Below, one piece after another: positions 434 through 26,601 of a stretch of 32,000 nucleotides of DNA. The stretch comes from Candidatus Brocadia sp. (lineage in GTDB: Bacteria; Planctomycetota; Brocadiia; Brocadiales; Brocadiaceae). The notes under the pieces were generated by a model. It ran no database searches and had not been told where the DNA came from. It worked only from the letters and a program-made list of their open reading frames with translations. Numbering within the stretch: the stretch's first letter is position 1; each line of letters starts with the position of its first letter. The position numbers were made by a program, and so were the translations under genes. The DNA is taken from NCBI GenBank assembly GCA_021650915.1, contig CP091279.1, forward strand, positions 1,050,001 to 1,082,000. Direction: 5' to 3'.

Positions 434-487
434 TCTCTTCGACACCATGAATCGTAACAAACAAACCTCTGTCCTCTTTTGTAATCA

Positions 488-5803: not shown

Positions 5804-7402
5804 TTAAATTGCCCCCCGGCTGTACCATTTTTTTAACTTATTTCTCACCACGATGGCCGTAAGGTTTAAGATAAGCACCGTGAAGAGCAAGACGAGGGTT
5901 GTGGTATAAACCATAGGGATGGCAGCTTCGACATTGGGCGATTGAAAGCCGACGTCGTAAATGTGAAATCCCAGGTGCATAAATTTCCTTTCCAGATGGA
6001 TGTAAGGAAAGTGGCCGTCAATTGGCAAAGAGGGAGCCAGTTTCACAACGCCGGTAATCATCAGGGGCGCAACTTCTCCTGCAGCCCGTGCCATAGCCAG
6101 AATAGTGCCCGTAAGGATACCGGGGGTCGCCTGGGGGATCACCACTTTCCAGAGCGTTTCAAACTTGGTAGCGCCGAGCGCATAAGAGCCTTCACGTATA
6201 GCCCTGGGTACAGAAGAGAGCCCCTCCTCCGTTGCCACCACAACCACCGGCACCGTCAGGAGCGACAGGGTGAGCGCTGCCCACAAGATACCCCCCGTTC
6301 CATACGTAGGGGTTGGCAGCGCATCAGAAAAAAAGAGTTTGTCAATCCCCCCGCCCAAAAAATAGATAAAAAACCCCAGACCAAAGACACCAAAGACAAT
6401 GGATGGCACACCCGCCAGATTGCTCACCGATATCCTCACCAGTCGGGAAACAAAACTGTCGCCGGCATATTCTTTCAGGTATACCGCCGTCAATACGCCG
6501 AGGGGAACAACGGCGATACTCATAATCAGCACCATCATAACTGTCCCGAAAATAGCGGGAAAAACGCCGCCTTCCGTATTTGCTTCCCGCGGATCATCCC
6601 AGACAAACTCCCAGAATTTTGCGAAATAAAAACCGGTTTTGGAAAATATCCCCATCTCGTTTGGCGCATAAAAGCGAATGATCTGAAAAACGGGCACAAT
6701 CTCTTCCCTGCCGTCTGCAAGAAGCACCACAAGCTCTTTTTCGCGCGCCTTCTCATAGAGCGCGACAAGGGTAGCTTCTTTTTCCCGGTAGCTGTTTTCC
6801 AGATGTTCCATCCTCGCCATGACTGCATCAATCTTGTTCTGAATTTTTTCAGATGGATGCTGAGACTTCAGGCCTTCCAAAGCAAGGCGGAATTTTTCCA
6901 TCCGGTAATTTATATTCCCAATTTCCTTCTTCTCCACATACCGTATCTTTTTATAAAGGGCGTGGTTTTCTGCGAGCAAAGAGGCCAGGCCTTCAGCCTT
7001 CAGGGGTTGAACACCTTCATTTCGCCGCAGGCCGTATAAAAAGCCATACAGATTGCCCCATTCACGCCTCTCCACCGTCAGGGCATGCACGGGATACGTC
7101 TGAGATACAATATCAGCGTTATCTATCCACCGGAAGTCCATCCCATAGACGTCCCTGTTGCCAACCTTGAGTTTTGTCCGATACGCACCTTTTTGATGAG
7201 GAACCAACTCTCTTTCGGCAACCTCTCCCATCACCGCCGTACCGTCCCGGAGGGTAAACCGAACGATTTGCCGAGGCCAGAAGATGTCAAATCCATTGAT
7301 CATGATCAGCACAATCAAACCCGATATCATCAGGAGAGAGACCGTCAGCGTTCCGGCGGTCAGCCATATATAATGATTGCCTGATCTCAGAAATTTTTTC
7401 AT
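5804..7402 (-). CDS. pstA: Phosphate ABC transporter permease PstA, long form (532 aa)
   Basis: The C-terminal half is a typical PstA permease core ([29 protein letters not shown]). Its start overlaps the pstC stop by 4 nt. An insert of about 230 aa follows TM1. Confidence 0.9.
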
Positions 7403-9726
7403 AGCTTACTGTACCGTAGTTTCATCCTCTGCCGAACCGTTTCTGCAATGGTATTAACAACAAAGGTGGTAATAAAAAGGAGCAACGCAGCCAGAAAAAG
7501 CACCCGGTAAAGCGTTCCGCCATGCGGAGCCTCCGGAATCTCAACCGCAATATTTGCAGAAAGCGCCCGGAATCCGTTGAATAAATTCCAGTCCATTATC
7601 GGGGTGTTGCCGGTTGCCATAAGGACAATCATGGTTTCACCCACAGCCCTGCCAAATCCGATCATGACGGCTGAAAAGATGCCCGGACTTGCCGTGGGTA
7701 ATACCACCCTGACCGCGGTCTGCCATGGAGTGGCGCCAAGGGCAAGCGAAGCCGATCTGAGACTGTGAGGAACATTGCTCATGGCGTCTTCCGATATCGT
7801 AAAGATGAGAGGGATCACGGCAAACCCCATAGCAATACCCACCACAAGGGCATTTCTCTGATCGTATTGTAATCCAAGGATATGGGAAAGCCATTCCCGG
7901 TAATCACCTTCAAGAAAGAGGGACTCGTACCCGCCGCTTAGCAAAATCGATACATACACAGCGCCAATGATAAACGGAATTAAAAAAAGCGCCTCTATTC
8001 CATGACGGCACCACCCCCTTCCAAAGACCGGCAGGATCTTCCAGCACAAAATGGCTATAACAATGGAAAGGACGATGAAAAACGGCATGATGATAATCGC
8101 AGGAAATATTCTCTCCATGAGTGGCGCAAGCCAGAGTCCGGCAAGAAAACCGAGGATTACACTGGGAAGCGCCGCCATGATTTCAATAACCGGCTTTATG
8201 ATTTTCAGGGAATTGTGAAGAAACTGAGAGGTATACAGCGCCGCAAAGATGCCAATGGGTACGGCGATGACCAGGGCATAAAGGGTGCCTTTAATTGTGC
8301 CAAAGATTAACGGCACAAGACTCAGCTTCGGCTCAAAATCATCAGTCCCGCCGGTGGATTGCCAGACAAACTCCGGTTTTTCGTAACCCTCGTACCACAC
8401 CCGTCCGAACAGGGTTTTTGCGGTAATTTCCGGATGTGGATTGGAAATACTCCAGTGGAATAGCCGATTGTTTGCATCGACCGCAAAAATGCCGTCAGCT
8501 TTTGGTGCAAATGAAAGTGCTGTAAGGGTATGTCCCGTCTCAAGACACAAAAGAGTTTGTTCAGACGTAGCATGGTTAAGATGGATTGTTCCATCAGTCG
8601 CCGCGGTGAGAAACCCTTTATCACGCATTGACGGGGCAACCGCAAGAACCGGGGCTTTATGGGAGGCAAGGGTATGCACTTTTTTCAGCACCCATCCCGA
8701 AGATGACAGCGCATCTCTTGCCTGCATCCAAACATTTACTCCGCCACCGGCATCGCCGACGACAAGGGAAACGTCTCCCAATACAAAACCGAGTGCCGTT
8801 ACCGCATCACCCGACACTTTTACCTTTTCGACAAGATAAGGATTTTCTCTGTCCTTCACGTTTATGTGAAATAAGTCGCCAGATGACGTCCCCGCATACA
8901 GATTTTCCATAAAAAGATCAAGTGCAAGGGAGGTTATTTCCGTCTTGGCGCTCGGTTCCATCACATTTTCTGACAGGTCAAATGCCGTTCGCATTTCATC
9001 GGTATCGGCTTTTTCCAACCCACCCGTGTCTCCCATTTGCAGGAGATGAGCAACAGGGGAGAAGTTTTGAGTTAAATCATGCTCTACAAAAAGACCGGTA
9101 ATATCCTTCCGGATTTCTTTTTTTTCTCCGCTACCGAAAAGCGTTTTTTCAGTTTCGGAGGCCACAAGGACGAGATGGTTATCCTTGGTGCAAACGGCGG
9201 CAACAGTTGTACTGTCGTCTCCCCGGGAACTAATGCAGTGGATACCTTCTTTTTGATTGCTTGCCGGAATCCATCCTTCTTCAGATACTTCAGGGATAAC
9301 AGTCCGTCTGTCACCTGCAAATAACTCAGAGAAACTGATTGAGACCGCAAAGATCTTCCCATCATTGGTTCCCAGGAGCAGACGGTTGCGATCTTTATTA
9401 ACACACGTTATAACGGAGCTATTCAGGCCGGCAATAGGGTATCTTTTCAGGATTACACCATTTTGCAGAGAAATAAATTCCACCGTACCGTTGTTGTACA
9501 TACTATAAGCAATCTCCTGGTGGTCGTCCACACCCAGGGATATTGCCTTATCATGTACAGAGTAAGTGTTTTCCTTTGTTACTCTGGCGCCTTGTAAAAG
9601 CGGGTATACCTCCAGGAAAATAAAAACAAATAAGGCCAGGATAACAAAGACCGTGGCCGCTCCGCCGAGCTTAATTATCCAGCGGGCAGCCATGTCAGCA
9701 CACTTTCTTCGCTTTAAACTCTTCAT
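7399..9726 (-). CDS. pstC: Phosphate ABC transporter permease PstC, giant form (775 aa) with a large extracytoplasmic domain
   Basis: The C-terminal roughly 300 aa is a PstC core (SASLALGATPWQTAVRVVLPTASPGIFSA). The N-terminus has one TM helix followed by about 425 aa of repeated blade-like motifs. Confidence 0.9.
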   Translation of the reverse strand: MKSLKRRKCADMAARWIIKLGGAATVFVILALFVFIFLEVYPLLQGARVTKENTYSVHDKAISLGVDDHQEIAYSMYNNGTVEFISLQNGVILKRYPIAGLNSSVITCVNKDRNRLLLGTNDGKIFAVSISFSELFAGDRRTVIPEVSEEGWIPASNQKEGIHCISSRGDDSTTVAAVCTKDNHLVLVASETEKTLFGSGEKKEIRKDITGLFVEHDLTQNFSPVAHLLQMGDTGGLEKADTDEMRTAFDLSENVMEPSAKTEITSLALDLFMENLYAGTSSGDLFHINVKDRENPYLVEKVKVSGDAVTALGFVLGDVSLVVGDAGGGVNVWMQARDALSSSGWVLKKVHTLASHKAPVLAVAPSMRDKGFLTAATDGTIHLNHATSEQTLLCLETGHTLTALSFAPKADGIFAVDANNRLFHWSISNPHPEITAKTLFGRVWYEGYEKPEFVWQSTGGTDDFEPKLSLVPLIFGTIKGTLYALVIAVPIGIFAALYTSQFLHNSLKIIKPVIEIMAALPSVILGFLAGLWLAPLMERIFPAIIIMPFFIVLSIVIAILCWKILPVFGRGWCRHGIEALFLIPFIIGAVYVSILLSGGYESLFLEGDYREWLSHILGLQYDQRNALVVGIAMGFAVIPLIFTISEDAMSNVPHSLRSASLALGATPWQTAVRVVLPTASPGIFSAVMIGFGRAVGETMIVLMATGNTPIMDWNLFNGFRALSANIAVEIPEAPHGGTLYRVLFLAALLLFITTFVVNTIAETVRQRMKLRYSKL

Positions 9727-12588: not shown

Positions 12589-12782
12589 TTACTCCTCCTT
12601 TTCAAAAAGTAACCTTTCATATTTAAACATCCGTTGAGTTTCCGAAAATCATGGGCAGATGAGGAAGCATTTCCACCGTCCTTTCTATTCCATCTCAATT
12701 TTGCGACCATATACACCGCCCATTCAAAGGTTGTATGCTCCTTTTGCGCGTCGCTATTCTTGATGAAATTGTACTATTCATT

Positions 12783-12821
12783 TGTTAAGGAACGATTAAG
12801 AAAACATAAATTTTCCGTTAA
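12783..12821 (-). promoter_or_regulatory. Candidate Pho box: four hexamers in 11-bp register upstream of the porin gene
   Basis: The minus strand reads TTAACG-gaaaa-TTTATG-ttttc-TTAATC-gttcc-TTAACA. A TACAAT -10-like hexamer follows 9 nt downstream (12768-12773). The site is about 195-230 nt upstream of the porin ATG. Confidence 0.3.
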
Positions 12822-12892
12822 AATGAATAATGAACGAAGATATGCAAGTGCCTGTTTGTTGATAATTATTTAGCCAAGTGAAGTTAAACAGT

Positions 12893-13005
12893 GCAGGGTA
12901 GATTAAGCGAAACGAATCCACCATTGAGAAAGACGGGGAAAGCGGACTTCATTGTGAGCTCGGTCGGACGTTTCGGCGTAAAATACAGCGCTTAATCCAC
13001 CTTGC
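12893..13005 (+). repeat. Palindromic intergenic repeat, family B, copy 2
   Basis: gcagggtagattaagcgaaacgaatccacc ... ttcggcgtaaaatacagcgcttaatccaccttgc. It has the same ends and orientation as copy 1, with a longer centre. Confidence 0.7.
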
Positions 13006-13327
13006 CCACGGGCAATTTTAATTATAATAAGGTATGAAAGTGTGGGGTATCTGCGAAAGCCGTTGTGATGTGTATTTGAACACCGTACAAATTCACTAAT
13101 ATCACCTGCACCAATCCTATGATGAATCCTGGTACACCACCTGAGATTTATACAAACCTGACCTCTTTTTTCATGATGGAGTTCAGTATTTCTTCCCGTT
13201 TGTCAGAGGGAAAATTCGCGCCCTCGCTGGCAAGAGTACTTTCTCTACTCACGACATTCAGCGATTTCTCTACGCCTTCTTTATAGGGAGCATTCCCGAT
13301 TTCTTGTAAACTCACAATTTGAAGGGG

Positions 13328-14262
13328 ATAGGGGTAGGGAAGGCTTTCGCCTCCCCTCCCTCCGAACCATACAGGCGGATCTCCCGCATACGGCTCTCCA
13401 GTCAGTGGTTACCCCTTCGGGATTGACCGTTGAAAATATAAATTGCGGATACGTGAACAATTCATACCTCATAGCGCGGCACAGCCGCAACCAAATTTCC
13501 TTTATGAAAGCGGGGAGATTGCTTCGGAAAAGGCCCTCGCAATGACAGCGACCATGCACTTTGATGGCACACGGCACGTTGCCATTGCGAGTGAAGCGAA
13601 GCAATCTTTCACTCATAAAAAACGGTACCTCCTGAAAGGGGTTTGTGAAAAAACTTACAAAAAAAGAAGTTTTTATACAGTAATACTATAATGATGACAT
13701 CGATTCTCATCATTCACCTTATGCAAGCCGTCAACAGGTAGTCCGCTATAAGCCAGGTTCAAATCCGTTTCTACGGATTTCTCCAACTTGTTTAGGCATT
13801 TCTGCCACTCACCTTGGTTTGTCTTCCCAGCTTACCCACTTCATACCTCCACCTTCCTGCCTCCCTTCGCTCCACATCCATTACGATGCTTCTTCGCTCT
13901 TATGAAGTCTCTGACTCCTGACTTTGTCACTCCCTCTGTCAGGTATCCCTGATTCATGCACCTTGTCTTCCTGCCATTCCGTCTCCAACCACCCATTGCT
14001 CCCTATCATCGCTTTATCACGCTACCCCTCAGCTTGATAGACTTCCTTCTTTTTCCAAAAAGGTCTGGGCTTCACCACTCTCTAGCAGGCTCGCCGTTAC
14101 AACAGGCCGAATCGAGTTCGTCATTCTACGGACTAGCTTTTCACCTCCCGTTGCTCCCCACCCCATCTCACGATGATGCAGTTACGGTCGGTTACAGGGT
14201 TGGAAAGCGTTTTCCCTGAAGGGGACTTTCACCCCTCTGACATTGTGCACTCTCAGGCGCAC
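13328..14262 (-). ncRNA. Group II intron RNA, ORF-less (about 935 nt)
   Basis: All read on the minus strand. The 5' end is GTGCGCC (14262-14256). Domain V is GAGCCGTATGCGGGAGATCCGCCTGTATGGTTCGG (13396-13362) and includes the AGC triad. Domain VI is a 12-bp stem with a GAAA tetraloop and a bulged A (13335) 7 nt before a 3'-terminal TAT (ending at 13328). No reverse-transcriptase ORF is present. Confidence 0.85.
13470..13690 (+). repeat. 221-bp intergenic repeat element, family A, copy 1 (inside intron domain IV)
   Basis: Its ends are catagcgcggcacagccgcaacc and gtaatactata. An internal long inverted repeat pairs agattgcttcgg..ctcgcaatg with cattgcgag..gaagcaatct. By eye it differs at only about a dozen positions from the reverse complement of 22025-22246. 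Confidence 0.85.
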
Positions 14263-14314
14263 TAGCGCAGGCATCTTGCCTGCGTCGTTGGAGGCAGGCA
14301 AGATGCCTGCGCTA
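14263..14314. repeat. Perfect 21-bp stem / 10-nt loop hairpin abutting the intron 5' end
   Basis: tagcgcaggcatcttgcctgc (14263-14283) is the exact reverse complement of 14294-14314. It lies downstream of the HMA2-like gene on the minus strand. Confidence 0.85.
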
Positions 14315-14588
14315 CAGTATTCCCCGGCTGTTTTTTACCTTCCGGGTTTACAAAAAATCGGGCATGCTCTCTTCTTTATACGTATTTAAGATCAGGGGAA
14401 GAAGTGTCTCAATTTCTTTCATGGTCAAGTCTTTGAATTGATGTATGATGTGATTATAGATGAACATGACGATTTGGGAATAGGCCTCTTTTAATTTTGC
14501 ATTAAAAAAGTATGGACGTGCTTGTCTATCAGGGCTTTTCCATCACGATCGATGTTTGACTGATTGATTTTTCCTTTTATGAATATTT

Positions 14589-14873
14589 CTAGCTTACTTC
14601 CCTTATAATATTTTGTATCTCGGCACTGGATGAAAGAGAGTCAAGGGTGGTTTTAATGAATTCTATTACATCCACTTCTTTCGGTTCATAAACAATAACA
14701 AGACTCCCGGTAAATGGGTTAGCACGAATATCTTTTATTCCTGAAGGCATGGAAATAAATGAAAGGTTTTTAATATGGTCAGGTAAGTTTCTGATACGCC
14801 TGAGTTTTTTTATAAACGGTACCTTTAACCGTATGCGACCATCAATATGATGAACAATATTATAGGTAATCAT
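14589..14873 (-). CDS. HMA2-like (heavy-metal-associated-type) small protein
   Basis: 94 aa. The pattern HHIDGRIRLKVP ... GIKDIRANPFTGSLVIVYEP matches the small HMA_2-type proteins as I remember them. It is the last gene of the minus-strand metal cluster. Confidence 0.6.
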   Translation of the reverse strand: MITYNIVHHIDGRIRLKVPFIKKLRRIRNLPDHIKNLSFISMPSGIKDIRANPFTGSLVIVYEPKEVDVIEFIKTTLDSLSSSAEIQNIIREVS

Positions 14874-14991
14874 CGCGATCCTCCATCAGACTCAAATTAA
14901 CTGTGTGTACCAGGATATCTTAAAGTGTAATAAATATGCTTTTTCAATGGAAAAACAGTCAAAAAAATGAAAGTCTCATACAATGAACTTT

Positions 14992-15657
14992 TCATGCTTG
15001 AACCTTTTGGTGACAGGCACATGCAATACCTTTGGCTTTTTGAAATGCTTCACGCCCCTCCTTGAGTGAAAAGAACGCAATGGCCAGAGTGCCCATGGCA
15101 TCCATGCCGCCAATACCAGTATATTCATACCCAATACTTGTCAGAAGAAGAACTACCGAGAGGTACAAACAGGTCTTTGTGCAGTTTGCGTCAGTTAGTA
15201 TAGCTTGGGAGTTCAGTTGTCTGCCAACTTTGACCTTGAAATGGATGAGCAACCACATAGATGAGATCGATACAAGCGCCACCACAATGCCCCAAAAGGT
15301 TGTTACTGGTTTGTGTCCCTGGTAGAGATTCAGTATGGCGGTTGTCGTCAGCCCAAAGACGAGAATATAAAAGGCTGTCCCGGTAATTCTCAAAGCCTGC
15401 TGTTCGAATCTGTCAGGATGCGTGTCGTTCTTTTTTTTAAAGCGGTGAATCATATGCCACACCCCAATACCGGAGATCACCTCTACGAACGAATCCAGCC
15501 CGAATCCAAAGAGAGAAAGAGTTTCGTCCTCCATGCCAAGCAAGAGAGAAACAATCCCTTCAATGATATTATAAAAAATCGTAACAAGTGCCAGGATCGA
15601 TGCCCTTTTATAAAGATATGTTTTTGCCTGGAGTTTTACTGGTTCTTGGTTAACCAT
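14992..15657 (-). CDS. CDF-like cation transporter, membrane domain only
   Basis: About 6 TM helices with acidic/His positions in TM2 and TM5 (FGLDSFVEVISG; ILTDANCTK). The C-terminus has a CACH motif and no cytoplasmic CDF domain. The first ATG is at 15657; a TTG at 15720 is the alternative start. Confidence 0.55.
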   Translation of the reverse strand: MVNQEPVKLQAKTYLYKRASILALVTIFYNIIEGIVSLLLGMEDETLSLFGFGLDSFVEVISGIGVWHMIHRFKKKNDTHPDRFEQQALRITGTAFYILVFGLTTTAILNLYQGHKPVTTFWGIVVALVSISSMWLLIHFKVKVGRQLNSQAILTDANCTKTCLYLSVVLLLTSIGYEYTGIGGMDAMGTLAIAFFSLKEGREAFQKAKGIACACHQKVQA

Positions 15658-15721
15658 AACAATAGGTATACATTTCCACTTACTACGAACAATGGCATTA
15701 TATTTTTGTGCATTTACCAAC

Positions 15722-16414
15722 TCATCTTGACCGTCTTAACTCTACCGAATTTGAAACTGATTTAAAGTATTCAAACAGATGAGCTATTTCGTTACCCTGT
15801 AGCATTGGCCAGTACATATTTTGCATTTCTATTTTATCACACATATAAGGTGCATGAGAGAGTAATTGGCTCGCAAATCGTAGTACATCTCCACCATTTT
15901 TTGCAATGCCTGATAAACTTGGTCCAACGCGTCCTCCTTCACCGTTAATTGAATGGCAAACCTTACAGCCTAAATAAGAGAAGAGAAAAGACCCCCTGGA
16001 CGCATTTCCCGTAAATTTAATTTGTGCGTGTTTTTCACTGGCAGTGTTTAGAGATTCAAAGATATAAATAAGTTCATCATTTTCAAATTTCGGTATCCCT
16101 TTTTTTGCTTCCGTAAAGGCTTTAACCATTTCCGGAACATGATTCCACATAATAGCAGCCCAAAGCACAGGAGAGGAAAGCTCTTTCCATCTTTCCAGAT
16201 CAGGCACCTGTTCTTTCTTGATATTTTCACTATTATGGCAATATGAGCATTGCTTTGTTTCAAAAAGATGATTTCCCATTGCAACCCGATCCTCTTTTGT
16301 CAATGTTTTATTTTCCGCGGCATTTACAAAAGCAATGTTTGTAACGGTAAGAAATAGAGGCAAAATAATCATAAAACTTAAAAAAAATCTATCACTTCTT
16401 CTTTGATTATTCAT
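15722..16414 (-). CDS. Dihaem c-type cytochrome, secreted or membrane-anchored
   Basis: Two CxxCH motifs (CSYCH, CKVCH). A signal/anchor sequence follows MNNQRRSDRFFLSFMIILPLFL. The longer ORF reaching 16534 only reads into repeat A2, so I chose the ATG at 16414. Confidence 0.8.
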   Translation of the reverse strand: MNNQRRSDRFFLSFMIILPLFLTVTNIAFVNAAENKTLTKEDRVAMGNHLFETKQCSYCHNSENIKKEQVPDLERWKELSSPVLWAAIMWNHVPEMVKAFTEAKKGIPKFENDELIYIFESLNTASEKHAQIKFTGNASRGSFLFSYLGCKVCHSINGEGGRVGPSLSGIAKNGGDVLRFASQLLSHAPYMCDKIEMQNMYWPMLQGNEIAHLFEYFKSVSNSVELRRSR

Positions 16415-16473
16415 TTCTACATCCTCATATTTAATTGATGGAACGTGTAATCTGCCTTCCTGATACCAGATTA

Positions 16474-16691
16474 CATAGCGCAGCACAGCCACAACCAGGT
16501 CCCCGTTGTGAAAGCGGAAGATTGCTTCGGACAAGACCCTCGCAATGACGCGGGCTATGTCTTTGATGAAATACTATCCGTTGTCATTACGAACGAAGCG
16601 AAACAATCCTTCTCTTATAAATAAACGGCACCTTCTGATAAGGGGTAAATAGGGTTGCAAAAAAAGAAAAATTTTATGCGGTAATAGTATA
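16474..16691 (+). repeat. Family A repeat element, copy 2 (diverged)
   Basis: It has the same ends (catagcgcagcacagccacaacc ... gtaatagtata) and the same internal attgcttcgg / cgcaatgac / cattacgaa / gaaacaatc arms as copy 1. Confidence 0.75.
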
Positions 16692-16805
16692 AGACAGTTC
16701 AACCTGCATGCATTACCTGATGCGAATGTTATTCGTCAATAGCTCATGTTCATTCGTCTTTTTCACCAATGACACAATATTGACAATCTCATATCACAAA
16801 ACATG

Positions 16806-18395
16806 TTAAAAGTTTACCTGTGTTCTAAAACCTGTCACTATAGCCGTATCATCACTGTCTGCGCCAGCAGGGTCAAATATTGCCTGAACATGTGGTGACA
16901 ATGAAAGATGTTCATTAATATCAACCTTGTAATAAAGTTCTGTACTACTTTCATAATCTCCACCAGCTTTATCTATCTGGCCAAAAGCAATGGCTACTTC
17001 ATCTGTAAATCGTTTAAGGAATGGAACGCTCATTCTCATTCCCGCACTCCATGCGCTTGCAATTTCCGTCTCTTCTGGATTATTCTCATTGGCTCCATAT
17101 CTGCCAAAGAGGGCTATCCGGTTGGTAATCCCCTGATCTATGCTCACACCAAATCCTTTGTTATCACCGTTATCACCATTCATTCGTCCCCAGATTCGGT
17201 ACGTGCCTTCACGACCAAGTAATTTATCAGTCGTATAACCGATTTCTGCTATAGCATAGAGTTCATCAGTAATCCTCGTCCCTGAATTATCATTACTTTG
17301 CAATCCCAATCCCATAGTAAGACCCTTTTTTGTATCAAAAAACGCTACCAGTCCAGGACCTGGATCAGGAGGTTCCAAGGTTGCGCCATTTACAAACGCA
17401 TCAGTTATAAATTGTGATGTTTCATCATTGGCAAGCGCATTAGCATCAAAATAGTTTCCCAAATCTATCTTACCAGAAACAAGGCTCAACCTCTTATCAA
17501 ATAGTTCCGATCCCAACCATACTTCACGAACAGCTACCCTGTCCAGCCCATCATCATCATCCTGGTTTGAACCCGAATCTGCGTTAAGGCCTGCTAAACT
17601 ACCTATCGCTTCATCAGGTCCGTTACCCCCTATTGCCTCAATATCAATAAAGAATGTAGTATAGAGAAAAGGTTTGGTAAGGAAAATCAGATCAAATGAG
17701 CCTGAGCCAAAATTCTCTTCTTCAACATCGCTACTCACTATCTGTTGAAAGATACCGGTGCCACTGGCACCAAGCAAAACCTGTTTGGCACGGTCTTCTT
17801 CAAATGCCGCATTAATCATTTGAGAGATATTTTCCCTTCTGGCATAGTTAAAAACTCTCTCGTGAGTTCGCGACCGTTGCATAGCGCCGCACACAGGGCA
17901 TCTGTTATTGTCACCGGAAACTGGCAATACGTGATCGTTCAGACAAACATATTCCTGGTTTCTTCTAATCTCATCCTGAAAAAAATCAAATATGGTAAAT
18001 CTATCTTTTAACACATCTACCGCCCCTTCAACATGTGAAAGCCTATCGTTTATATCTTTTTCACTTTCACTATCAAGAGATTCAACGGGAACAGTATCAC
18101 TTACTTCTGTTTCCTTTGCGGAAACCAGTTTACTAATATTTTCCTCAATTTCACTCATACGATCATATATTCGGTTTACACTTTCATTATCAATAGGCTT
18201 ACCGGAAACAGTGTCTCTTGCTTCCCTTTCCTTTGTGGAAACTAGTTTGTTAACAATCTCCTCAAGTTTGGTTATACGGTTACTCAAGGCATCAAAGTCT
18301 TCTCGCGAAACTTCTGCAAACAATACACTCGGGGAAAATAATGCACAAAATGAAATACCATACAGCGTCCCCTTATATGGCAAAACTTTTCCCAT
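16806..18395 (-). CDS. OprB-like (carbohydrate-selective porin family) outer-membrane protein with a coiled-coil and Cys/His N-terminal region
   Basis: 529 aa with a signal peptide. It has the OprB-type motif GKIDLGNYFDANALANDETSQFITDAFVNG and a C-terminal aromatic residue (QVNF). Confidence 0.7.
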   Translation of the reverse strand: MGKVLPYKGTLYGISFCALFSPSVLFAEVSREDFDALSNRITKLEEIVNKLVSTKEREARDTVSGKPIDNESVNRIYDRMSEIEENISKLVSAKETEVSDTVPVESLDSESEKDINDRLSHVEGAVDVLKDRFTIFDFFQDEIRRNQEYVCLNDHVLPVSGDNNRCPVCGAMQRSRTHERVFNYARRENISQMINAAFEEDRAKQVLLGASGTGIFQQIVSSDVEEENFGSGSFDLIFLTKPFLYTTFFIDIEAIGGNGPDEAIGSLAGLNADSGSNQDDDDGLDRVAVREVWLGSELFDKRLSLVSGKIDLGNYFDANALANDETSQFITDAFVNGATLEPPDPGPGLVAFFDTKKGLTMGLGLQSNDNSGTRITDELYAIAEIGYTTDKLLGREGTYRIWGRMNGDNGDNKGFGVSIDQGITNRIALFGRYGANENNPEETEIASAWSAGMRMSVPFLKRFTDEVAIAFGQIDKAGGDYESSTELYYKVDINEHLSLSPHVQAIFDPAGADSDDTAIVTGFRTQVNF

Positions 18396-18585
18396 AAGTT
18401 TTTCCTTTCATTTAACGAAACGATAGCACAGACATCAAATCACCCGTTTTAGTAGCGCTTGCAATTTTTTATACCTGTCGCATCGTTATCCCATATCCCT
18501 CCCATAATTCCACGGTCTTCTTTCCCAAATGCCAGTTCTCTGTGCGGAGATAACGATTACCATACTTGCTTTTGTCATAGCCGTC

Positions 18586-18807
18586 TCAACCTACCCACTC
18601 ATAAACTTCAATCATTGCAGGATCACACTTCACGCATGTCTTGCATTTCACAACAGGCTCTGAATGTTTTCGAACCTTACCCTTACGTATCCAGTGTTCC
18701 AGTACACCGCATACAGCATCAGGCTCCATGTCAAAGTGTATAGCCATATCGTTCAAGGTGGCCATTCCGCGTTCAGAAAGATATCGTTTTAGTTCGGAAA
18801 GAATCAT
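18586..18807 (-). CDS. feoC: FeoC-like winged-helix protein
   Basis: 73 aa. MILSELKRYL...ATLNDMAIHF followed by a Cys cluster (CKTCVKCD). It lies directly downstream of feoB. Confidence 0.75.
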   Translation of the reverse strand: MILSELKRYLSERGMATLNDMAIHFDMEPDAVCGVLEHWIRKGKVRKHSEPVVKCKTCVKCDPAMIEVYEWVG

Positions 18808-18873
18808 GGCCAGGTTTCCTGATCGTTTCTTTTTTACTACTCAACCAAAATATTTTAAAAGAGGTACTGTGTT

Positions 18874-21189
18874 TCATTGTACGGTTGCAGCCACCATAAC
18901 CGGTCTCGCCTTACGAACTCCCCGGCCAAAACACCACATGACAAAAAGAGCAACTGCAAAAGCTGCTACTTCACAGCCGATCCATACCTTCGAGAACGTT
19001 GGATGCTGATGAAAAGTGGCTACCTGATAGAAAAATGTGGATGCCAGATATGCGAGTCCCGTAGTCCAGGCTCCGACAAAAATCGTCCATTTTATGTTAG
19101 TCTCACGATATACAGCAGCCATGGCAGCTACGCAGGGGAAGTAGAGCAAGATAAAGATGAGATACGCAAAGGCGCCGATCTTGCCGGAAAAAAGACTGGT
19201 CATAGCAGCAAGGGTACCAACAGTCACCTCCTGCTCCTCTGCAGCATGCTCAACAGTTTCAATCTCACCCACGGACATACCGAGGGGATCGAGGATCGTT
19301 CCAGCCACATCTGCGAGATTTGCGGGAATAGTAGCAAATGCATCGAGAATCCCACCCCAGAAGTCAAATACTTCTTCAACTGCTCCCTCTTCAGCAGCTT
19401 GGGAATAAATGGAATCAAGTGTCCCCACCACTGCCTCCTTAGCAAAGATTCCGGTGAATATGCCCACCGTAGCAGGCCAGTTCTCTTCATTAAGCCCCAT
19501 AGGAGTAAAAGCAGGGGTAATGGTCTTCCCTATACTTGCCAGCACGGACTTATCAGTGTCCTCATTACCGATAGTGCCATCTGTTCCCATGGAATTAAGA
19601 AAGCTTAATACGATGATTACCGGGATAAGGACACGGCTGGCTCGTAACATAAACGCCTTCAGCCTGTCCCATGACAGCAAAAGTACACCCCTGGCCGTTG
19701 GCCTGTGGTATGGAGGCAATTCCATAATAAAGGATGATAGCTCACCTTTGAGAAGGGTATTCTTTAAAACAAGACCGGTTATCACGGCAAAGCCTATACC
19801 TAAAAGGTAGAGACCGAAAACAAGATTCTGCCCACCTACAGGAAAAAAGGCCGCAGCAAAAAGCGCGTAAACAGGCAATCGGGCACCACAAGACATGAAG
19901 GGGTTCATCATGATATTCAGGGTACGGTCCCGCTGATGCTCAAGGGTGCGGGTAGCCATAATAGCCGGAACGTTGCAACCGAACCCCACCAGCAATGGAA
20001 CAAAGGATTTACCGGGAAGTCCGATAAACCTCATGAACCTGTCCATAACAAAAGCAGCCCGGGCCATATACCCTGAATCCTCAAGACAAGCGAGTACCAT
20101 AAACATAAAACCAATGGGTGGAATAAAGGTGGATATTGTCTGAATACCGCCACCGATGCCGTTGGCCAGGATGACAGTCAGCCATTCAGGAGTGCCGATG
20201 GAGCCAAGAAGTACTCCAAAGCCGTCCACAAAAATAGTACCGAAAAAGATGTCAAAAAAGTCGATAAACGCACCACCAATGTTGATAGTCCACATGAACA
20301 TAAAATACATAGCCACCAGGAAGATAGGGATTCCCAGCACCCTGTTAAGCACTATCCGGTCGATTTTATCGGATACCGTCCTTGTCAACTTGGTTGGTTT
20401 GCTTACTATCCCTTTTGTCAACCAGTTGATAAAACCATAACGACTGTCTGCTATTACGATATCTGGCTCTTCTCCAAGCTTGGCCTCTATCTTCTTTACG
20501 TGGTGTTCTAAGATATCATCAGCGATACCTCCAATCATGTTTAAGGCTATAGCATCACCTTCCAGCAGCTTTACTGCAACCCAGTGAGGGGCTACCTTTT
20601 TACCCTGCACCGCTTTCTCTACAATCGGCACCAATTCATTGACGGCCTCCTGGATTTCCACAGGATATACCACCTGAGTTTCTGATACCGGTATCTCCTC
20701 GGCAGCTTTGTTGATTGCCGACATCAACTCTTTAACACCCTCTTTTTTGGAAGCGACAATGGGAATGACCGGGCTACCTAATTGTTTTGCCAGGCCGGAA
20801 ATATCTATTTTGATATTACGGCTCTTTGCAATATCCATCATATTAAGAATAATCAACATCGGCACCTTCATTTCAAGGAGTTGAGTCGTCAAATAGAGAT
20901 TACGTTCCAGGTTTGACGCATCCACTATGTTTAGTATGAGATGAGGCTCCCCTGAAAGGATATAGTCCCTGGCAACCATCTCATCCACTGAGGCAGCGGA
21001 TAGCGAATAGATTCCGGGAAGGTCTACCAGCTGGATCTGACGATCTTCATGCTTGTAATAACCAACCTTGCGATCCACGGTTACTCCGGGCCAGTTACCC
21101 ACCCGTTGAGCGGAGCCGGTCAGGACATTAAACATCGTGGTCTTGCCGCAGTTGGGATTTCCTGCAACACCTATGATAAAATCAGTCAT
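18874..21189 (-). CDS. feoB: Ferrous iron transporter FeoB
   Basis: G-domain motif GNPNCGKTTMFN and a long polytopic membrane domain. I chose the start at MTDFIIGVAG (21189), which has GGAGGT 6 nt upstream. Confidence 0.95.
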   Translation of the reverse strand: MTDFIIGVAGNPNCGKTTMFNVLTGSAQRVGNWPGVTVDRKVGYYKHEDRQIQLVDLPGIYSLSAASVDEMVARDYILSGEPHLILNIVDASNLERNLYLTTQLLEMKVPMLIILNMMDIAKSRNIKIDISGLAKQLGSPVIPIVASKKEGVKELMSAINKAAEEIPVSETQVVYPVEIQEAVNELVPIVEKAVQGKKVAPHWVAVKLLEGDAIALNMIGGIADDILEHHVKKIEAKLGEEPDIVIADSRYGFINWLTKGIVSKPTKLTRTVSDKIDRIVLNRVLGIPIFLVAMYFMFMWTINIGGAFIDFFDIFFGTIFVDGFGVLLGSIGTPEWLTVILANGIGGGIQTISTFIPPIGFMFMVLACLEDSGYMARAAFVMDRFMRFIGLPGKSFVPLLVGFGCNVPAIMATRTLEHQRDRTLNIMMNPFMSCGARLPVYALFAAAFFPVGGQNLVFGLYLLGIGFAVITGLVLKNTLLKGELSSFIMELPPYHRPTARGVLLLSWDRLKAFMLRASRVLIPVIIVLSFLNSMGTDGTIGNEDTDKSVLASIGKTITPAFTPMGLNEENWPATVGIFTGIFAKEAVVGTLDSIYSQAAEEGAVEEVFDFWGGILDAFATIPANLADVAGTILDPLGMSVGEIETVEHAAEEQEVTVGTLAAMTSLFSGKIGAFAYLIFILLYFPCVAAMAAVYRETNIKWTIFVGAWTTGLAYLASTFFYQVATFHQHPTFSKVWIGCEVAAFAVALFVMWCFGRGVRKARPVMVAATVQ

Positions 21190-21190
21190 T

Positions 21191-21427
21191 CTATACCTCC
21201 TTTTGTACTGAGAGCGCAGATGCCTCACCTTTTCTCAACGTCAAGTTAAAGCCGCGTACATTGATTTCTACAGGGTCCCCCAATGGAGCTACCCGTTTCA
21301 CAGTAAATTCGACCCCCTTTGTAAGACCCATCGCCATCAGTTTCTCCCTATATGTCTTGTCAACCTTCTCGAAACCAATAACCCTGCCTTTTTCCCCCAC
21401 AGCCATTTCAGTTAATGTAATAGCCAT
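21191..21427 (-). CDS. feoA: FeoA family protein (second copy)
   Basis: 78 aa with an SH3-like FeoA pattern (GEKGRVIGF ... LMAMGLTKGVEFTVKRVAPLGDPVEI). The ATG at 21427 is preceded by GGAGGAGG. Confidence 0.9.
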   Translation of the reverse strand: MAITLTEMAVGEKGRVIGFEKVDKTYREKLMAMGLTKGVEFTVKRVAPLGDPVEINVRGFNLTLRKGEASALSVQKEV

Positions 21428-21440
21428 ATTCGCCTCCTCC

Positions 21441-21731
21441 TTAAATCTGTACGACCATAATTTTTTGTGCCATGCCTCCCCCAAGGATGTAACGGCCTCC
21501 TTCACTGGCAACCAGCACAGAACCCTGTTGACGAGATTGTACAATTTCAATCTCATCACCCGCATTAAACCCCATACTGATGAGCCGTTCCTGAAACCCT
21601 CTTCCACCTTTCAGGGCAACAATCCTGACCTTTTGTCCTTCACTGGCAAAGGTCAGCGGAAAAGCACTCCCCGAAGAAGAGTCTTCCTCTGAATTCATAT
21701 GCTCATGTTTTTCATTACTATTATTATTCAC
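21441..21731 (-). CDS. feoA: FeoA family protein (first copy) with an acidic/His-rich N-terminal tail
   Basis: 96 aa with the FeoA pattern GQKVRIVAL...RLISMGFNAGDEIEIV. The N-terminus is MNNNSNEKHEHMNSEEDSSS. Confidence 0.85.
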   Translation of the reverse strand: MNNNSNEKHEHMNSEEDSSSGSAFPLTFASEGQKVRIVALKGGRGFQERLISMGFNAGDEIEIVQSRQQGSVLVASEGGRYILGGGMAQKIMVVQI

Positions 21732-21810
21732 AACAACACCCTTCCTTTCGTCGCCTGGTTATTGCAGGTATCGTTTTTTCATAAACAGTTCACACCAGGG
21801 GGTGAACTGT

Positions 21811-21926
21811 TATAGTATTACTTCATACAAACTTCTTTTTTCTGTAATGTTTTCTTTGTGATCTTTGTGCAAAGCTTTGCGTTCTTTGTGGTTAAACTTT
21901 TTTGGTTGCGACTGTGCTGCGTTATG
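21811..21926 (-). repeat. Family A-related short element (same termini, different core)
   Basis: The termini tatagtattac (21811-21821) and ggttgcgactgtgctgcgttatg (21904-21926) match those of family A. The core is replaced by ctttgtgatctttgtgcaaagctttgcgttctttgtgg. Confidence 0.6.
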
Positions 21927-22024
21927 TTTTTTCTGGGTAACAACCATCTTTATAACAGGAATACCAGTCTCTTTCTTAAATTTAAATGTACCAACATATT
22001 TGTTATTACCCATAATTGCTGCTG

Positions 22025-22246
22025 TATAGTATTACTGTATAAAAACTTCTTTTTTCTGTGAGTTTTTTCACAAACCCCTTTCAGGAGGTACCGTTTTTTA
22101 TGAGTGAAAGATTGCTTCGCTTCACTCGCAATGACAACATGCAGTGTACCATCAAAGTGCATGGCCAGTGTCATTGCGAGGGCCTTTTCCGAAGCAATCT
22201 CCCCGCTTTCATAAAGGAAATCTGGTTGCGGCTGTGCCGCGCTATG
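22025..22246 (-). repeat. Family A repeat element, copy 3 (inverted relative to copies 1 and 2)
   Basis: Its reverse complement aligns end to end with 13470-13690. Confidence 0.85.
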
Positions 22247-22657
22247 TATAGCCACATATTATTTGAGACAAAGACTCAAACGCATTGCAATTTTATATAT
22301 TAAATCATCAATGTCAACCTTTTTTTATAACAAATCGTCAGGGCGCTTCATTTCTGAATTTCAATCTCTCTGCCATCTTTACTCATGGGTTTGTCGCCTT
22401 TGTCGCTCACAACCTTACCGTTATCTTCGACCACTTGCAAGAGGCTCTATTAGCCCACCTCTATGTCACGATCTCATCAAAAGGCATACATAAGCCGTAC
22501 AGGCTATTGCTGGGATGAGCTATTCTTTTCATTTCATCATCAGATGGTATTTTTATGGATTCTTTTATCCGCAGATTTGTAAAGATAAAAGGTGTTGCTA
22601 TAAACATCAAAGATAGTATAATTTGAAAAAATTTTACATGGGTTAACGATACGAATT

Positions 22658-24040
22658 ATGCAGTATGATTTTAAAAACAAAAAGATTACAGTTATGGGGT
22701 TAGGCCTGTTTGGCGGCGGGGTGGGTATTGCCCAATTTCTTGTAAGACAAGGCGCTCGTGTTACGGTAACGGATGTGAGAACCGCTCAGGAATTATCCCC
22801 TTCCGTAAAACGGCTTGAAGGTCTTCCCATTTCCTATAAGCTTGGCGGGCACTGCGAGGATGATTTTGTCAGCGCAGATATGGTGATTGTGAATCCTGCT
22901 GTGCCAAAGGATTCAAGGTACCTGCACCTCGCAAGAAATAACCATGTACCCATGGATTCCGAAATTAACATTTTTTTTCAATTATGTCCGGCTCCCATTA
23001 TCGGTATTACCGGCAGTAATGGAAAGTCAACCACGACCACCCTTACCGGCAAAATATTGCACCAGACACAAAGAACGACCTGGGTGGGTGGGAACATTGG
23101 GAAATCCTTACTTTCAGACCTCGGAGAGATACAACCCGCAGATATCGTAGTCCTTGAGCTATCCAGCTTTCAGCTTGAGGAACTCCTGTGCTCACAAACA
23201 AGCCCGGGCATCAGCATTGTAACCAATATATCACCCAACCACCTTGACCGATATCCAGGAATGAACGAATATATCCAGGCCAAAAAAGGTATTATTGCAC
23301 ATCAAAAGCCAACAGATTACGCGATTCTCAATTACGATGACCCGGAATTACGAAGGTGGGAGAAGGAATGCAAAGGTAACGTTTTATGGTACAGTACCAG
23401 GACAACGCTGTCAGAAGGTGCCTTTATCGACGGCAACTCCCTCGTCCTGTCTGTGAAAGGCAATACAATAGCAGTGCCGTGTGTCTCCGGTATTAAAATA
23501 CCTGGTATCCATAACCTGCAAAATATCCTGGCTGCCTCCTGTGCCGCCTATCTTGCCGGTGCAAATGGACGGCATATTGAAAATACGATCGCCACCTTCC
23601 CCGGATTAGAACACCGCCTGGAATTCGTCCGTCAAATCAATGGTGTACAATACTATAATGACTCCAAGGCAACAACGCCAGAATCTGCCATGGCAGCCGT
23701 TACGGCATTCCAGACACCCGTGATCCTGATTGCCGGCGGCTATGATAAGGGAAGCGACTTTGAGGAATTTGCCGGGGTTTGTGCAAAACGCGCCAGGTCG
23801 GTTATTCTTATCGGGAAAACGGCAAAGAAGATAGAAGAACTCATCCGCCAGAAAAAAGAGGGAAGAGAAATGCCGTCCCTCTTTACCCCCACAACCTTCA
23901 GGGAGGCATTTCAACAGGCAACTACGATAGCAAAGTCCGGAGACGTTGTATTGTTGTCTCCCGCCTGCGCCAGTTATGACATGTTCCTGAATTATGAAGA
24001 ACGGGGAAGACAATTTAAGGACATGGTTCGGGCCTTATAA
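22658..24040 (+). CDS. murD: UDP-N-acetylmuramoyl-L-alanine--D-glutamate ligase MurD
   Basis: 460 aa with an N-terminal Rossmann motif (GLGLFGGG), the Mur ligase P-loop GITGSNGKSTTT, and C-terminal YDMF..YEERG. Confidence 0.93.
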   Translation: MQYDFKNKKITVMGLGLFGGGVGIAQFLVRQGARVTVTDVRTAQELSPSVKRLEGLPISYKLGGHCEDDFVSADMVIVNPAVPKDSRYLHLARNNHVPMDSEINIFFQLCPAPIIGITGSNGKSTTTTLTGKILHQTQRTTWVGGNIGKSLLSDLGEIQPADIVVLELSSFQLEELLCSQTSPGISIVTNISPNHLDRYPGMNEYIQAKKGIIAHQKPTDYAILNYDDPELRRWEKECKGNVLWYSTRTTLSEGAFIDGNSLVLSVKGNTIAVPCVSGIKIPGIHNLQNILAASCAAYLAGANGRHIENTIATFPGLEHRLEFVRQINGVQYYNDSKATTPESAMAAVTAFQTPVILIAGGYDKGSDFEEFAGVCAKRARSVILIGKTAKKIEELIRQKKEGREMPSLFTPTTFREAFQQATTIAKSGDVVLLSPACASYDMFLNYEERGRQFKDMVRAL

Positions 24041-24167
24041 TATAGTAAACGCTAAAGGAAAGATGTCATTGCGAAGGCGTTAGACCGAAGCAATCTCAAG
24101 GGTGGGATTGCTTCACTGTCGTCCGCAATGATTATCACCTGTCAACTTATTTAAGGCGCTTACTATA
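24041..24167. repeat. 127-bp palindromic MITE-like element related to family A
   Basis: Terminal inverted repeats tatagtaaacgc (24041-24052) and gcgcttactata (24156-24167). The inner arms cattgcga..cgaagcaatc and gattgcttc..cgcaatg form a near-perfect palindrome. Confidence 0.7.
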
Positions 24168-24218
24168 GTATCTTGTGATAAACTTTTTCTTTCATGCATC
24201 TTTTTATAAAGGACTATC

Positions 24219-25160
24219 ATGGTATTGCAAATCGTCTTGTTATTTGCAGGACTTGCCGGGCTCTATTATGGGGCTGAATGGCTCGTCGGCGGGGCATCAA
24301 GATTCGCCCGGTCATTTCAAATCAAACCCGTAGTTATCGGACTCACCATCGTTGCTTTTGGCACTTCGACTCCGGAACTTGTCACCAGCGTAACCGCCGG
24401 TATGAGGCATTTAAGCGACATTGCCATGGGAAATATTATTGGAAGCAATATCGCCAATATCGGCCTTATCCTGGGGTTATCGGCGCTCGTTCGTCCCCTT
24501 ACGATTGATACGAAGCTCCTCTATCGTGAAATGCCGATTGTGGTGGGTATCTCATTCCTTTTATATTTCATGGTGTGGGACGGCACCCTAAGCAGGACGG
24601 AGGGCGCCATTCTCCTTGGTGGTATTGTACTTTATACGTGTTATGTATACCGCATAGCCTTAAAGGAAGCCAGCCTTGTTGAGCAGGAGTATGAGGAATT
24701 TCTTGGAACGGAGGATACGAACGTCAGAAAAAACATCTTCCTTATCCTCATCGGACTTGGGGCGCTCATGGGAGGAGCGCATTTTCTGGTCCATGCTGCG
24801 ATCTTTATCGCCAAGGTCATAGGAATCAGCGAACTCGTCATTGGCCTCACCGTTATTGCCGTCGGGACGTCTCTTCCGGAACTGGCAACTTCCCTGGTTG
24901 CCGCCATCCGCAAGGAATCCGATATCAGTGTCGGGAACGTGCTGGGGAGTAATATCTTTAACATCCTTACAGTCCTCGGCATTTCCTCCATAATCCAACC
25001 CCTGTCTGTCAATGCGGCTTCCCTCCGTGTTGATATGCCGGTCATGCTGTTCTTCAGCATCTTCATCATTCCTCTTATTACCTGGAAGTTCATGATTAGC
25101 AGGGTACAGGGAATGATGCTGCTGATTGGGTATGCTGTCTACATTCTCTGGCTATTTTAG
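24219..25160 (+). CDS. Calcium/sodium antiporter (CaCA family, YrbG-like)
   Basis: 313 aa and about 10 TM helices. It has the duplicated alpha-repeat motifs GNIIGSNIANIGLILG and GNVLGSNIFNILTVLG. Confidence 0.88.
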   Translation: MVLQIVLLFAGLAGLYYGAEWLVGGASRFARSFQIKPVVIGLTIVAFGTSTPELVTSVTAGMRHLSDIAMGNIIGSNIANIGLILGLSALVRPLTIDTKLLYREMPIVVGISFLLYFMVWDGTLSRTEGAILLGGIVLYTCYVYRIALKEASLVEQEYEEFLGTEDTNVRKNIFLILIGLGALMGGAHFLVHAAIFIAKVIGISELVIGLTVIAVGTSLPELATSLVAAIRKESDISVGNVLGSNIFNILTVLGISSIIQPLSVNAASLRVDMPVMLFFSIFIIPLITWKFMISRVQGMMLLIGYAVYILWLF

Positions 25161-26358: not shown

Positions 26359-26510
26359 GGTAACACTTTAGTTTTTTGAAAATTACAATAATAACAATGT
26401 TACCGCACGGTGTAGGGGCGAAGCATTTGCCATAAATTGATATAAATGTATTCACACCCCAAGCAGGCAAATGCTTCGCCCCTACTTTTTCAAAAAACTA
26501 AAGTGTTACC
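26359..26510. repeat. 152-bp nested perfect palindrome (MITE-like)
   Basis: The outer 24-bp arms (26359-26382 and 26487-26510) and the inner 20-bp arms gtaggggcgaagcatttgcc (26412-26431 and 26466-26485) are each exact reverse complements. Confidence 0.85.
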
Positions 26511-26601
26511 TCTTTTGTAAGTAACCATTGAGTTTTTTGAAAAAACCCTCTGTATGAATAATATTGCCATGTAGTGGTAGGTTTGAAACCTGCCTTCAGG
26601 G

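Follow-up and report, generated by a model that had tools for sequence, protein, structure and literature searches.

An ORF-less group II intron directly behind a 21-bp hairpin in Candidatus Brocadia fulgida, with signs of non-autonomous spread

Introduction

Class C (IIC) group II introns are described as choosing their targets by a short pairing beside a stem (PMC4424553, PMC12584367, PMC7306698). Members such as B.h.I1, GsI-IIC, O.i.I1 and A.v.I2 insert after a DNA stem-loop and use a very short pairing between exon-binding site 1 (EBS1) of the intron and intron-binding site 1 (IBS1) of the exon, with no IBS2; their ribozyme is compact, and their enzyme consists of reverse transcriptase (RT) and X domains only. 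Bacterial introns that have no open reading frame (ORF) nearly always co-occur with related enzyme-coding introns (PMC4424553, PMC12584367), and the ORF-less introns of Trichodesmium dnaN and further cyanobacterial examples are served in trans. Here we describe a group II intron, 935 nt long and devoid of an enzyme gene, which adjoins a 21-bp hairpin on the minus strand of a 32-kb stretch of Candidatus Brocadia contig CP091279.1 ('the window', to which all coordinates refer). As a whole, it is best explained as the ORF-less derivative of an endonuclease-lacking, hairpin-targeting group II lineage that has spread non-autonomously, an explanation to which we assign a probability of about 0.7.

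The host is Candidatus Brocadia fulgida, an anaerobic ammonium-oxidizing (anammox) bacterium, since the flanking proteins are encoded on contigs of this species (GCA_000987375.1, GCA_019186885.1, GCA_029760155.1) at 99.7-100% DNA identity. Hairpin-targeting group II introns without an ORF represent a known kind, and our knowledge of the intron mechanism is unchanged by the finding; what is added is a gene-less form that seems to be spreading as a sub-lineage among anammox bacteria. Full-length copies, gene-less ones sharing a deletion, a further decayed form and occupied hairpins with covarying EBS1-IBS1 together make up a natural series, which lends itself to the questions of how a ribozyme without a gene can be mobilised in trans and which features of a DNA hairpin the ribonucleoprotein recognises.

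Identity, boundaries and ribozyme core

The sequence from 14262 to 13328 of the minus strand is a genuine group II intron (Table 1). The Rfam model of domains V and VI (RF00029) matched 13398-13328 (-) over its full length with 51.5 bits (gathering threshold 40; E = 1.6e-7 for the whole window), and this was the only domain V match in the entire 32 kb. Both termini, GUGCG at 14262 and CUAU at 13328, agree with the group II consensus (5' GUGYG, 3' AY), the bulged branch-site A at 13335 lies 7 nt ahead of the terminal TAT (13328), and homology with copies at other loci runs precisely from G1 to the last T. An earlier reading of this DNA, made from the sequence only, had proposed the 5' end GTGCGCC at 14262, a domain V bearing the AGC triad and a domain VI that is capped by GAAA and contains a bulged A, all of which were borne out by these matches. 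The boundaries can also be seen in the way genomes break here: more than 20 short-read contigs entering from the porin side end at 13352-13368, about 29 nt within the 3' end of the intron, as expected of a de Bruijn assembler at a repeat boundary, while in the original B. fulgida assembly the breaks fall within the intron, 61 nt from its 5' end and 15 nt from its 3' end. The intron thus explains the breaks of Brocadia short-read assemblies at this locus, and such introns, together with their associated palindromic repeats, may be flagged as drivers of fragmentation and rearrangement in anammox genomes.

Table 1. Features of the intron and its target in the window (dashes in the strand column denote the minus strand).
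Feature	Position	Strand	Remarks
Target hairpin, 5' exon	14263-14314	-	arms TAGCGCAGGCATCTTGCCTGC and GCAGGCAAGATGCCTGCGCTA; 3' arm finishes on last exon base
IBS1, last five exon bases (CGCUA)	14263-14267	-	positions -1 to -3 and -5 can pair with EBS1, -4 cannot
Whole intron	13328-14262	-	935 nt, GUGCGCC to CCCCUAU; homology with copies elsewhere begins and ends here
Domain I	13948-14257	-	intron positions 6-315; consensus fold and covariation
Proposed EBS1 (UAGAG)	14080-14084	-	11-nt loop of hairpin 14095-14068; intron positions 179-183
Domain II	13913-13947	-	35 nt, short; consensus fold and covariation
Domain III	13861-13907	-	47 nt; consensus fold and covariation
Domain IV	13400-13857	-	approximate boundaries; no enzyme gene; alignment with full-length siblings
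Repeat in domain IV	13472-13690	-	about 215 nt, TA-flanked; net insertion 217 nt
Domain V	13362-13396	-	AGC triad, 2-nt bulge, 4-bp distal helix, 5-nt loop
Domain VI	13331-13359	-	GAAA loop; bulged branch A at 13335
First base of 3' exon (C)	13327	-	C at most related sites too

The remainder of the ribozyme was examined through a consensus fold of the first ~450 nt of the intron, built from an alignment of seven sequences. Domains I-III comprised 107 predicted pairs, with 94% of the cells paired, and compensatory double changes occurred at 39 pairs, compared to 12.4 +/- 2.9 in column shuffles and only 4-8 when the partners were slid by 1-3 columns. Relative to its relatives, therefore, the window intron has preserved its helices through compensatory changes, and all of its catalytic motifs are intact. 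The domain I model RF02001 matched 14177-14006 (-) with 30.6 bits, below its gathering threshold of 32. When the 935 nt were compared by BLAST to the loci fetched, domain I and domains V-VI resembled introns carrying RT and maturase (RT+X) genes, found in an alphaproteobacterium (L017), a member of Bacteroidetes (L020, with an intact 474-aa protein), a 497-kb metagenome contig (L027/L025) and a B. fulgida metagenome-assembled genome (MAG) (L031). In length, the ribozyme comes to ~405 nt over domains I-III and to ~480 nt when domain IV is excluded. The sequence-only reading had suggested covariance models, folding of domains I-III, a search for exon-binding loops and a search for enzyme-bearing siblings as checks on the intron; each of these returned a positive answer, as the group II match, the covariation, a domain I loop (14084-14080) that covaries with the exon, and the full-length siblings L031 and L027/L025 attest, although the ORFs of both siblings are frameshifted.

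From these features, the window intron is predicted to splice at present, in which case the ligated exon junction would read ...GCCUGCGCUA/CCCCUUC, or, in longer form, ...AGAUGCCUGCGCUA/CCCCUUCAAAUUG. A scan of a genome collection with a domain V pattern returned 12 loci from diverse phyla, among which the host genome was not included; most of them extended too little on the 5' side to be of help, and one of them (L016) had no recognisable 5' end. Exact-protein look-ups of the small intron ORFs at 13956-14219 (+), 13881-14009 (-) and 14029-14166 (-) gave no record.

The target hairpin and its pairing with the intron

The intron is directly adjoined at its 5' end by a 52-nt hairpin (14314-14263) with 24-nt arms that are 96% complementary, each arm being a small palindrome in itself (GCAGGCA-TCT-TGCCTGC). 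The perfect 21-bp stem noted in the sequence-only reading was indeed found, and what had been described as the loop was resolved into a C-C mismatch, two further pairs and a loop of 4 nt. Folded as single-stranded DNA, the hairpin had a free energy of -31.3 kcal/mol (z = -7.9), and none of 200 shuffled sequences was equally stable. It is not a canonical intrinsic terminator: the terminator scan of the window did not flag it, and reconstruction of the empty site places CCCCTTCAAATTG after it, with no T-run.

All relatives whose 5' end is intact were then inspected at their 5' junctions, which amounted to ~9 independent sites, located in Brocadia, in Kuenenia, on other metagenome contigs and on plasmids of Burkholderiaceae (Table 2). 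At nearly all of them the intron was preceded by a stem, unrelated in sequence from site to site, that finished at the splice site or 2-5 nt ahead of it, and at the five sites tested against shuffles the stems had z scores from -2.2 to -7.9. Stems of unrelated sequence in front of independent copies show that the link between intron and hairpin is no coincidence. It could still be argued that the adjacency is fortuitous and that the lineage homes to a specific sequence, like most group II introns, considering that the last three exon bases (CUA) are common to most close relatives, and that the distant relative L017 has a small stem as well as an alternative stem that spans its insertion site. 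The stems recur, however, within 5 nt of the junction at ~9 independent sites, the five tested being more stable than shuffles, and the exon bases upstream of -5 are not conserved despite a near-identical domain I, which together leave a sequence-specific homing site with next to no credibility.

Table 2. Junctions and EBS1-IBS1 pairings in the window intron and its relatives (a slash in the junction column marks the splice site; z, stem stability relative to shuffles).
Intron	5' junction	z	EBS1	IBS1
Window (Ca. B. fulgida)	...CCTGCGCTA/, ending GCGCTA/	-7.9	Table 1	Table 1
L027/L025 (497-kb metagenome contig)	TAGGGGCAGG...CCCGCCCCTA/, ending CCCCTA/	-3.8		
L027			(C)AGGG	CCCU(A)
L056 (Kuenenia MAG)	TAGGGGCTGAA-GAT-TTCAGCCCCTA/			
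L031 (B. fulgida MAG)	21-nt arms, 2 mismatches, ending ATACTA/	-3.5		
L023b (metagenome)	TAGCGC...GCGGGGG-ATGAA-CCCCCGCGCTA/, ending GCGCTA/	-2.2		
L030/L026 (metagenome)	CGACC-ATAAA-GGTCGGTGCTA/, ending GTGCTA/	-2.9		
L030			UAGCG	UGCUA
L048/L051 and L049 (metagenome)	ATTCCCGC...GCGGGAATGA/			
L048-L050			UCAUU	AAUGA
L057/L058 (Cupriavidus, Paraburkholderia plasmids)	ACCGCGTCAGCGGT, then TTAGT/		ACUAA	UUAGU
L020			UAGC	GCUA
L017			UCAUU	GGUGA

The second component of the target lies in the exon bases next to the splice site. In the aligned relatives, the loop proposed as EBS1 covaries with the last 3-5 exon bases (Table 2). Farther upstream than -5, the exons have nothing in common even where the introns are 84-88% identical in domain I, which argues that no second exon-binding pairing (IBS2) is in use, and the consensus fold contained no separate hairpin 5' of the EBS1 hairpin. 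An assignment as a IIB-like intron with EBS1 at UAGCGU (around position 243) was also considered and dropped, it being the loop at 179-183 that covaries with the exon. The lineage would thus insert directly 3' of a stem-loop, as class C introns do, selecting its target by the stem together with a 3-5-nt EBS1-IBS1 pairing and needing no second exon-pairing site; the 21-bp hairpin would be the landing target and not a part of the intron.

Two other observations concern hairpins of the window. Nested palindromes occur at 26359-26600, with perfect outer arms of 24 nt (26359-26382 and 26487-26510) and an inner hairpin (26412-26431 and 26466-26485; GTAGGGGCGAAGCATTTGCC...GGCAAATGCTTCGCCCCTA/C). The inner hairpin (TAGGGGC...GCCCCTA) ends as do the occupied targets of L027 and L056 and is followed by C, for which reason it may be an unoccupied intron target; the adjacent 26521-26600 is similar by eye to the 5' flank of L027. 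In addition, more than 20 independent short-read contigs arriving from the HMA_2 side all end at 14340, at distances of 26 nt from the hairpin and 78 nt from the intron, a position at which the intron repeat would not be expected to cause a break, while one contig (L045) continues to 14310 and then diverges. Strain variation or a drop in coverage at the hairpin could be the cause.

Loss of the enzyme gene and the gene-less lineage

The only sense-strand ORF in the span (13281-13616, 111 aa) has no Pfam match and crosses the intronic copy of a repeat, in agreement with the sequence-only reading, which had noted the absence of RT motifs and the read-through into a repeat. Domain IV was found to contain the degenerate first ~140 nt of an RT ORF, ~75 nt of filler and the inserted repeat. 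Full-length siblings measure 1,836-1,851 nt, the window intron 935 nt, and the copies in L002 and at the same locus in L035 718 nt; alignment to the full-length siblings revealed a deletion of ~1.2 kb of the enzyme gene. Without the repeat, the domain IV remnant is 215 nt long and picks up again at TCAATCCCGAAGGGGTAACC, the sequence with which the ORF of full-length copies closes.

Three gene-less forms were recognised, namely the window type, L030/L026 (88% identical to it in domains I-III) and L014/L029, and these sub-lineages occupy different loci on different contigs. Their domain IV remnants are of 215 (window type), 212 (L030) and 212 nt (L029), share the end point TCAATCCCGAAGGGGTAACC and can be aligned throughout, L030 being 93% identical to L029 and 63% to the window type. 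Given the same deletion layout in three sub-lineages, the gene-less form has probably spread as a non-autonomous element, and a single ancestral deletion followed by spread is the simplest reading of these sequences. The L014/L029 form is clearly dead: it is 503 nt long, part of its domain I is deleted internally, and its 5' end has mutated to ATGCACC. This 503-nt decayed copy is carried at one fixed locus by a related lineage of Planctomycetes that comprises RIFOXYC2_FULL_41_27 and four metagenome contigs (L023 at 346-850 (+), L014, L024, L028, L029); L023 additionally holds a 5'-terminal intron fragment behind a hairpin of its own (2307-2454, -).

A source of enzyme for such an element may be close at hand. 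The full-length sibling L031, which is 87% identical to the window intron in domains I-III and 95% in domains V-VI, resides in the B. fulgida MAG GCA_019186885.1, which also holds the porin flank of the window (L037). When the frameshifted L027 ORF was used as a composite query, many intact RT+X proteins of 449 aa were retrieved at 82-90% identity; they have the YADD motif and no endonuclease domain and mostly lie on metagenome contigs of 1.4-2.3 kb. Intact versions 95% identical to the L031 enzyme occur in metagenomes. These relationships make it likely that an intact enzyme copy is present in the same cell as the window intron.

On this basis, the following course of events may be proposed. 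An ancestor would have lost ~1.2 kb of its RT/maturase gene in one deletion, retaining the first ~140 nt, and the resulting element of ~720 nt would have moved to new hairpins as a non-autonomous retroelement, its splicing and reverse splicing being carried out by the enzyme of full-length siblings in the same genomes. Priming would presumably come from the replication fork, because the enzyme of this lineage has no endonuclease. Both the mobilisation in trans and this priming route are inferred. The ~215-nt genomic repeat would have entered the domain IV loop later, in this strain.

An alternative is that the intron is an immobile relic, i.e., that a full-length intron landed after the hairpin, had its enzyme gene deleted there and has since entered decay, with poor splicing and no movement. 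The window copy bears several features that would befit an inactive copy: EBS1 pairs with only three contiguous exon bases (CUA) and one more of the five, the repeat has inserted a net 217 nt into domain IV, and domain V has two G-U pairs at places where its siblings have G-C. Decay is also evident among its relatives, in the truncated L014 and L029 and in the enzyme genes of both genomic full-length siblings (one frameshift in L031, two in L027/L025). All of these speak for the relic. In L002 (4475-5154; a metagenome of anammox bacteria from the Joint Genome Institute), the same 5' flank, hairpin and a repeat-less intron, otherwise identical to that of the window, are followed by a different 3' flank (CAACCGCAACC...), which represents either a second genomic locus, in favour of spread, or a chimeric assembly across two copies. 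Against the mobile lineage, no empty site was found at the nearest porin orthologues (Brocadia sp. WS118 and another Brocadia), where no pre-insertion site can be compared because these orthologues have different upstream neighbours.

Nonetheless, a deletion in place fails to explain why three sub-lineages at different loci have the same deletion layout, and the intact catalytic motifs and compensated helices speak against a decaying ribozyme. Large inserts are normally tolerated in domain IV loops, and the repeat, which neither the L002 intron nor the L035 copy of this locus contains, must have moved recently, as a strain-level event. Overall, we consider the relic unlikely; of the two options left by the sequence-only reading, a decayed copy or a non-autonomous intron, the evidence leans towards the latter through the shared deletion, with the weak EBS1-IBS1 match and the domain IV repeat on the other side.

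The repeat itself has a second copy in the window at 22025-22244 (+), with 93% identity to the intronic one at 22042-22246, and partial copies at 16516-16559 and 21810-21854; another was seen in Brocadia sp. WS118 (L061 838-1069). Its features are an AT-rich stretch resembling a promoter, the sequence AGGAGG, an ATG and a short ORF (MSERLLRFTRN...). The GC skew of the plus strand is negative almost throughout the window (cumulative value 0 to -2.3), so that the intron has the G-rich strand as its sense strand, which might accord with the strand bias that has been reported for introns lacking an endonuclease.

Relation to described intron classes

All the traits of class C introns named at the outset are shared by this lineage, and RF02001 is the best match of its domain I. 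Among solved structures, the IIC RTs were closest to the lineage enzyme (7UIM, 221.6 bits; 6AR1, 204.9), followed by a chloroplast-like enzyme (153) and LtrA (141), classes D, E and F having no solved structures. Several differences stand beside these similarities. The stem here reaches the splice site and includes IBS1, whereas in IIC introns IBS1 lies in the T-tract after the stem; the intrinsic terminator that IIC introns target, a stem with a T-run, is absent; the lineage enzyme has ~55 more N-terminal residues than the solved IIC enzymes; and domain V has a 4-bp distal helix and a 5-nt loop, a trait reported for IIE and IIF introns (PMC3753933). The RF02001 score was 70.9 bits for D.p.I1, which has been treated as a divergent class C intron (PMC3552965), 41.8 and 34.4 in plasmids of the sister clade, and below the gathering threshold in the window. 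The enzyme was similarly distant from D.p.I1 (39.7% identity) and from the g1 intron Rh.js.I1 (37.8%), and tblastn against plasmids gave ~38-42% enzyme identity to everything outside the sister clade.

Anammox bacteria have also yielded c-Ku.st.I1 of Kuenenia stuttgartiensis, which has been grouped with So.us.I2, Ge.ur.I1 and Pe.th.I2 within class F as variety g5 (PMC3552965, PMC4244168). The anammox host is a point of likeness to class F g5 or 'unclassified' introns, and the size and the domain V pentaloop fit IIE/IIF (PMC3753933), c-Ku.st.I1 and class F having been compared by description only. A Kuenenia MAG bears a member of the present lineage (~86% identical), and cluster look-ups for the lineage enzyme returned no K. 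stuttgartiensis member. Characterised IIF introns differ in having been selected for an EBS2-IBS2 pairing of at least 5 bp (PMC3753933), of which none is evident here. Location just after terminators is, furthermore, not confined to class C, as the U1, U2 and g6 lineages near classes C and F were so placed in a 2022 survey (PMC8919778). IIC-attC integron introns resemble the present one in that their target is an imperfect inverted repeat and not a terminator with a T-tract (PMC4424553), but no integron surrounds the present intron, nor do the stems represent attC sites.

Targeting is thus class C-like, while the formal class may be C, F or unclassified. The class C-like homing behind a terminator-like stem-loop that the sequence-only reading had put forward holds for the hairpin rule and the short EBS1-IBS1, and not for the T-run or for class C membership, which is not established. 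A bolder combination would have the ~720-nt gene-less intron as an actively spreading anammox retroelement, comparable to miniature inverted-repeat transposable elements (MITEs) or short interspersed nuclear elements (SINEs) and derived by a single deletion, and its lineage outside canonical class C, near F/g5 or 'unclassified'. We regard this combination as possible but doubtful; if true, targeting of hairpin structure would be broader or older among group II introns than the class C label suggests.

The introns served in trans, such as that of Trichodesmium dnaN, are comparable in having no enzyme gene in domain IV and full-length relatives in the same genome or community. They reside, however, in housekeeping genes or sequence-specific homing sites, whereas the window intron lies between genes, after a hairpin, and is part of a gene-less sub-lineage that occurs in several genomes.

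Genomic context

Upstream of the hairpin and on the same strand, Pfam identified FeoB, an OprB-type porin, a cytochrome c, a cation-efflux protein and HMA_2, and on the near-identical contig L001 FeoC was called between FeoB and the porin. The sequence-only reading had spoken of a metal-cluster operon; metal genes are indeed present, but they form a metal-transport cluster and not an operon for metal-cluster assembly. Downstream, ~740 nt without a convincing gene are followed by a phosphate porin and pstSCA.

As the intron lies in a ~1.7-kb gap on the same strand as both flanking gene sets, it might be imagined as a domesticated module, in which hairpin and self-splicing intron regulate between the metal-transport genes and the phosphate porin/pst operon, e.g., by conditional read-through and splicing, with no need of an enzyme. 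There is a precedent in ORF-less C.te.I1, reported to splice without a related enzyme in its genome (PMC4424553). This arrangement is not conserved, however, since two other Brocadia genomes have different neighbours upstream of the porin and no intron; the same type of intron is found elsewhere in unrelated contexts, and nothing ties it to phosphate or metal regulation. Domestication is accordingly very improbable, and non-autonomous spread continues to be the preferred explanation.

In Brocadia sp. WS118 (L061), the phosphate porin operon adjoins homologues of window 22573-24804 (MurD, Na/Ca exchanger). The ~10 kb at 12630-22570, with the intron and the Feo/metal cluster, are absent there, which points to a rearrangement or insertion bounded by repeat-rich DNA. 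A c-di-GMP-I riboswitch match at L030 113-197 (+), with 35.7 bits (gathering threshold 35), lies antisense to domain VI of the L030 intron and its 3' flank and was set aside as probably due to chance. Lastly, the PstC-like permease at 7399-9726 (-) is a protein of 775 aa with a WD40-like beta-propeller (residues ~222-439) before the transporter domain, an architecture that is also present in other Brocadia genomes (L035, L061, L062).

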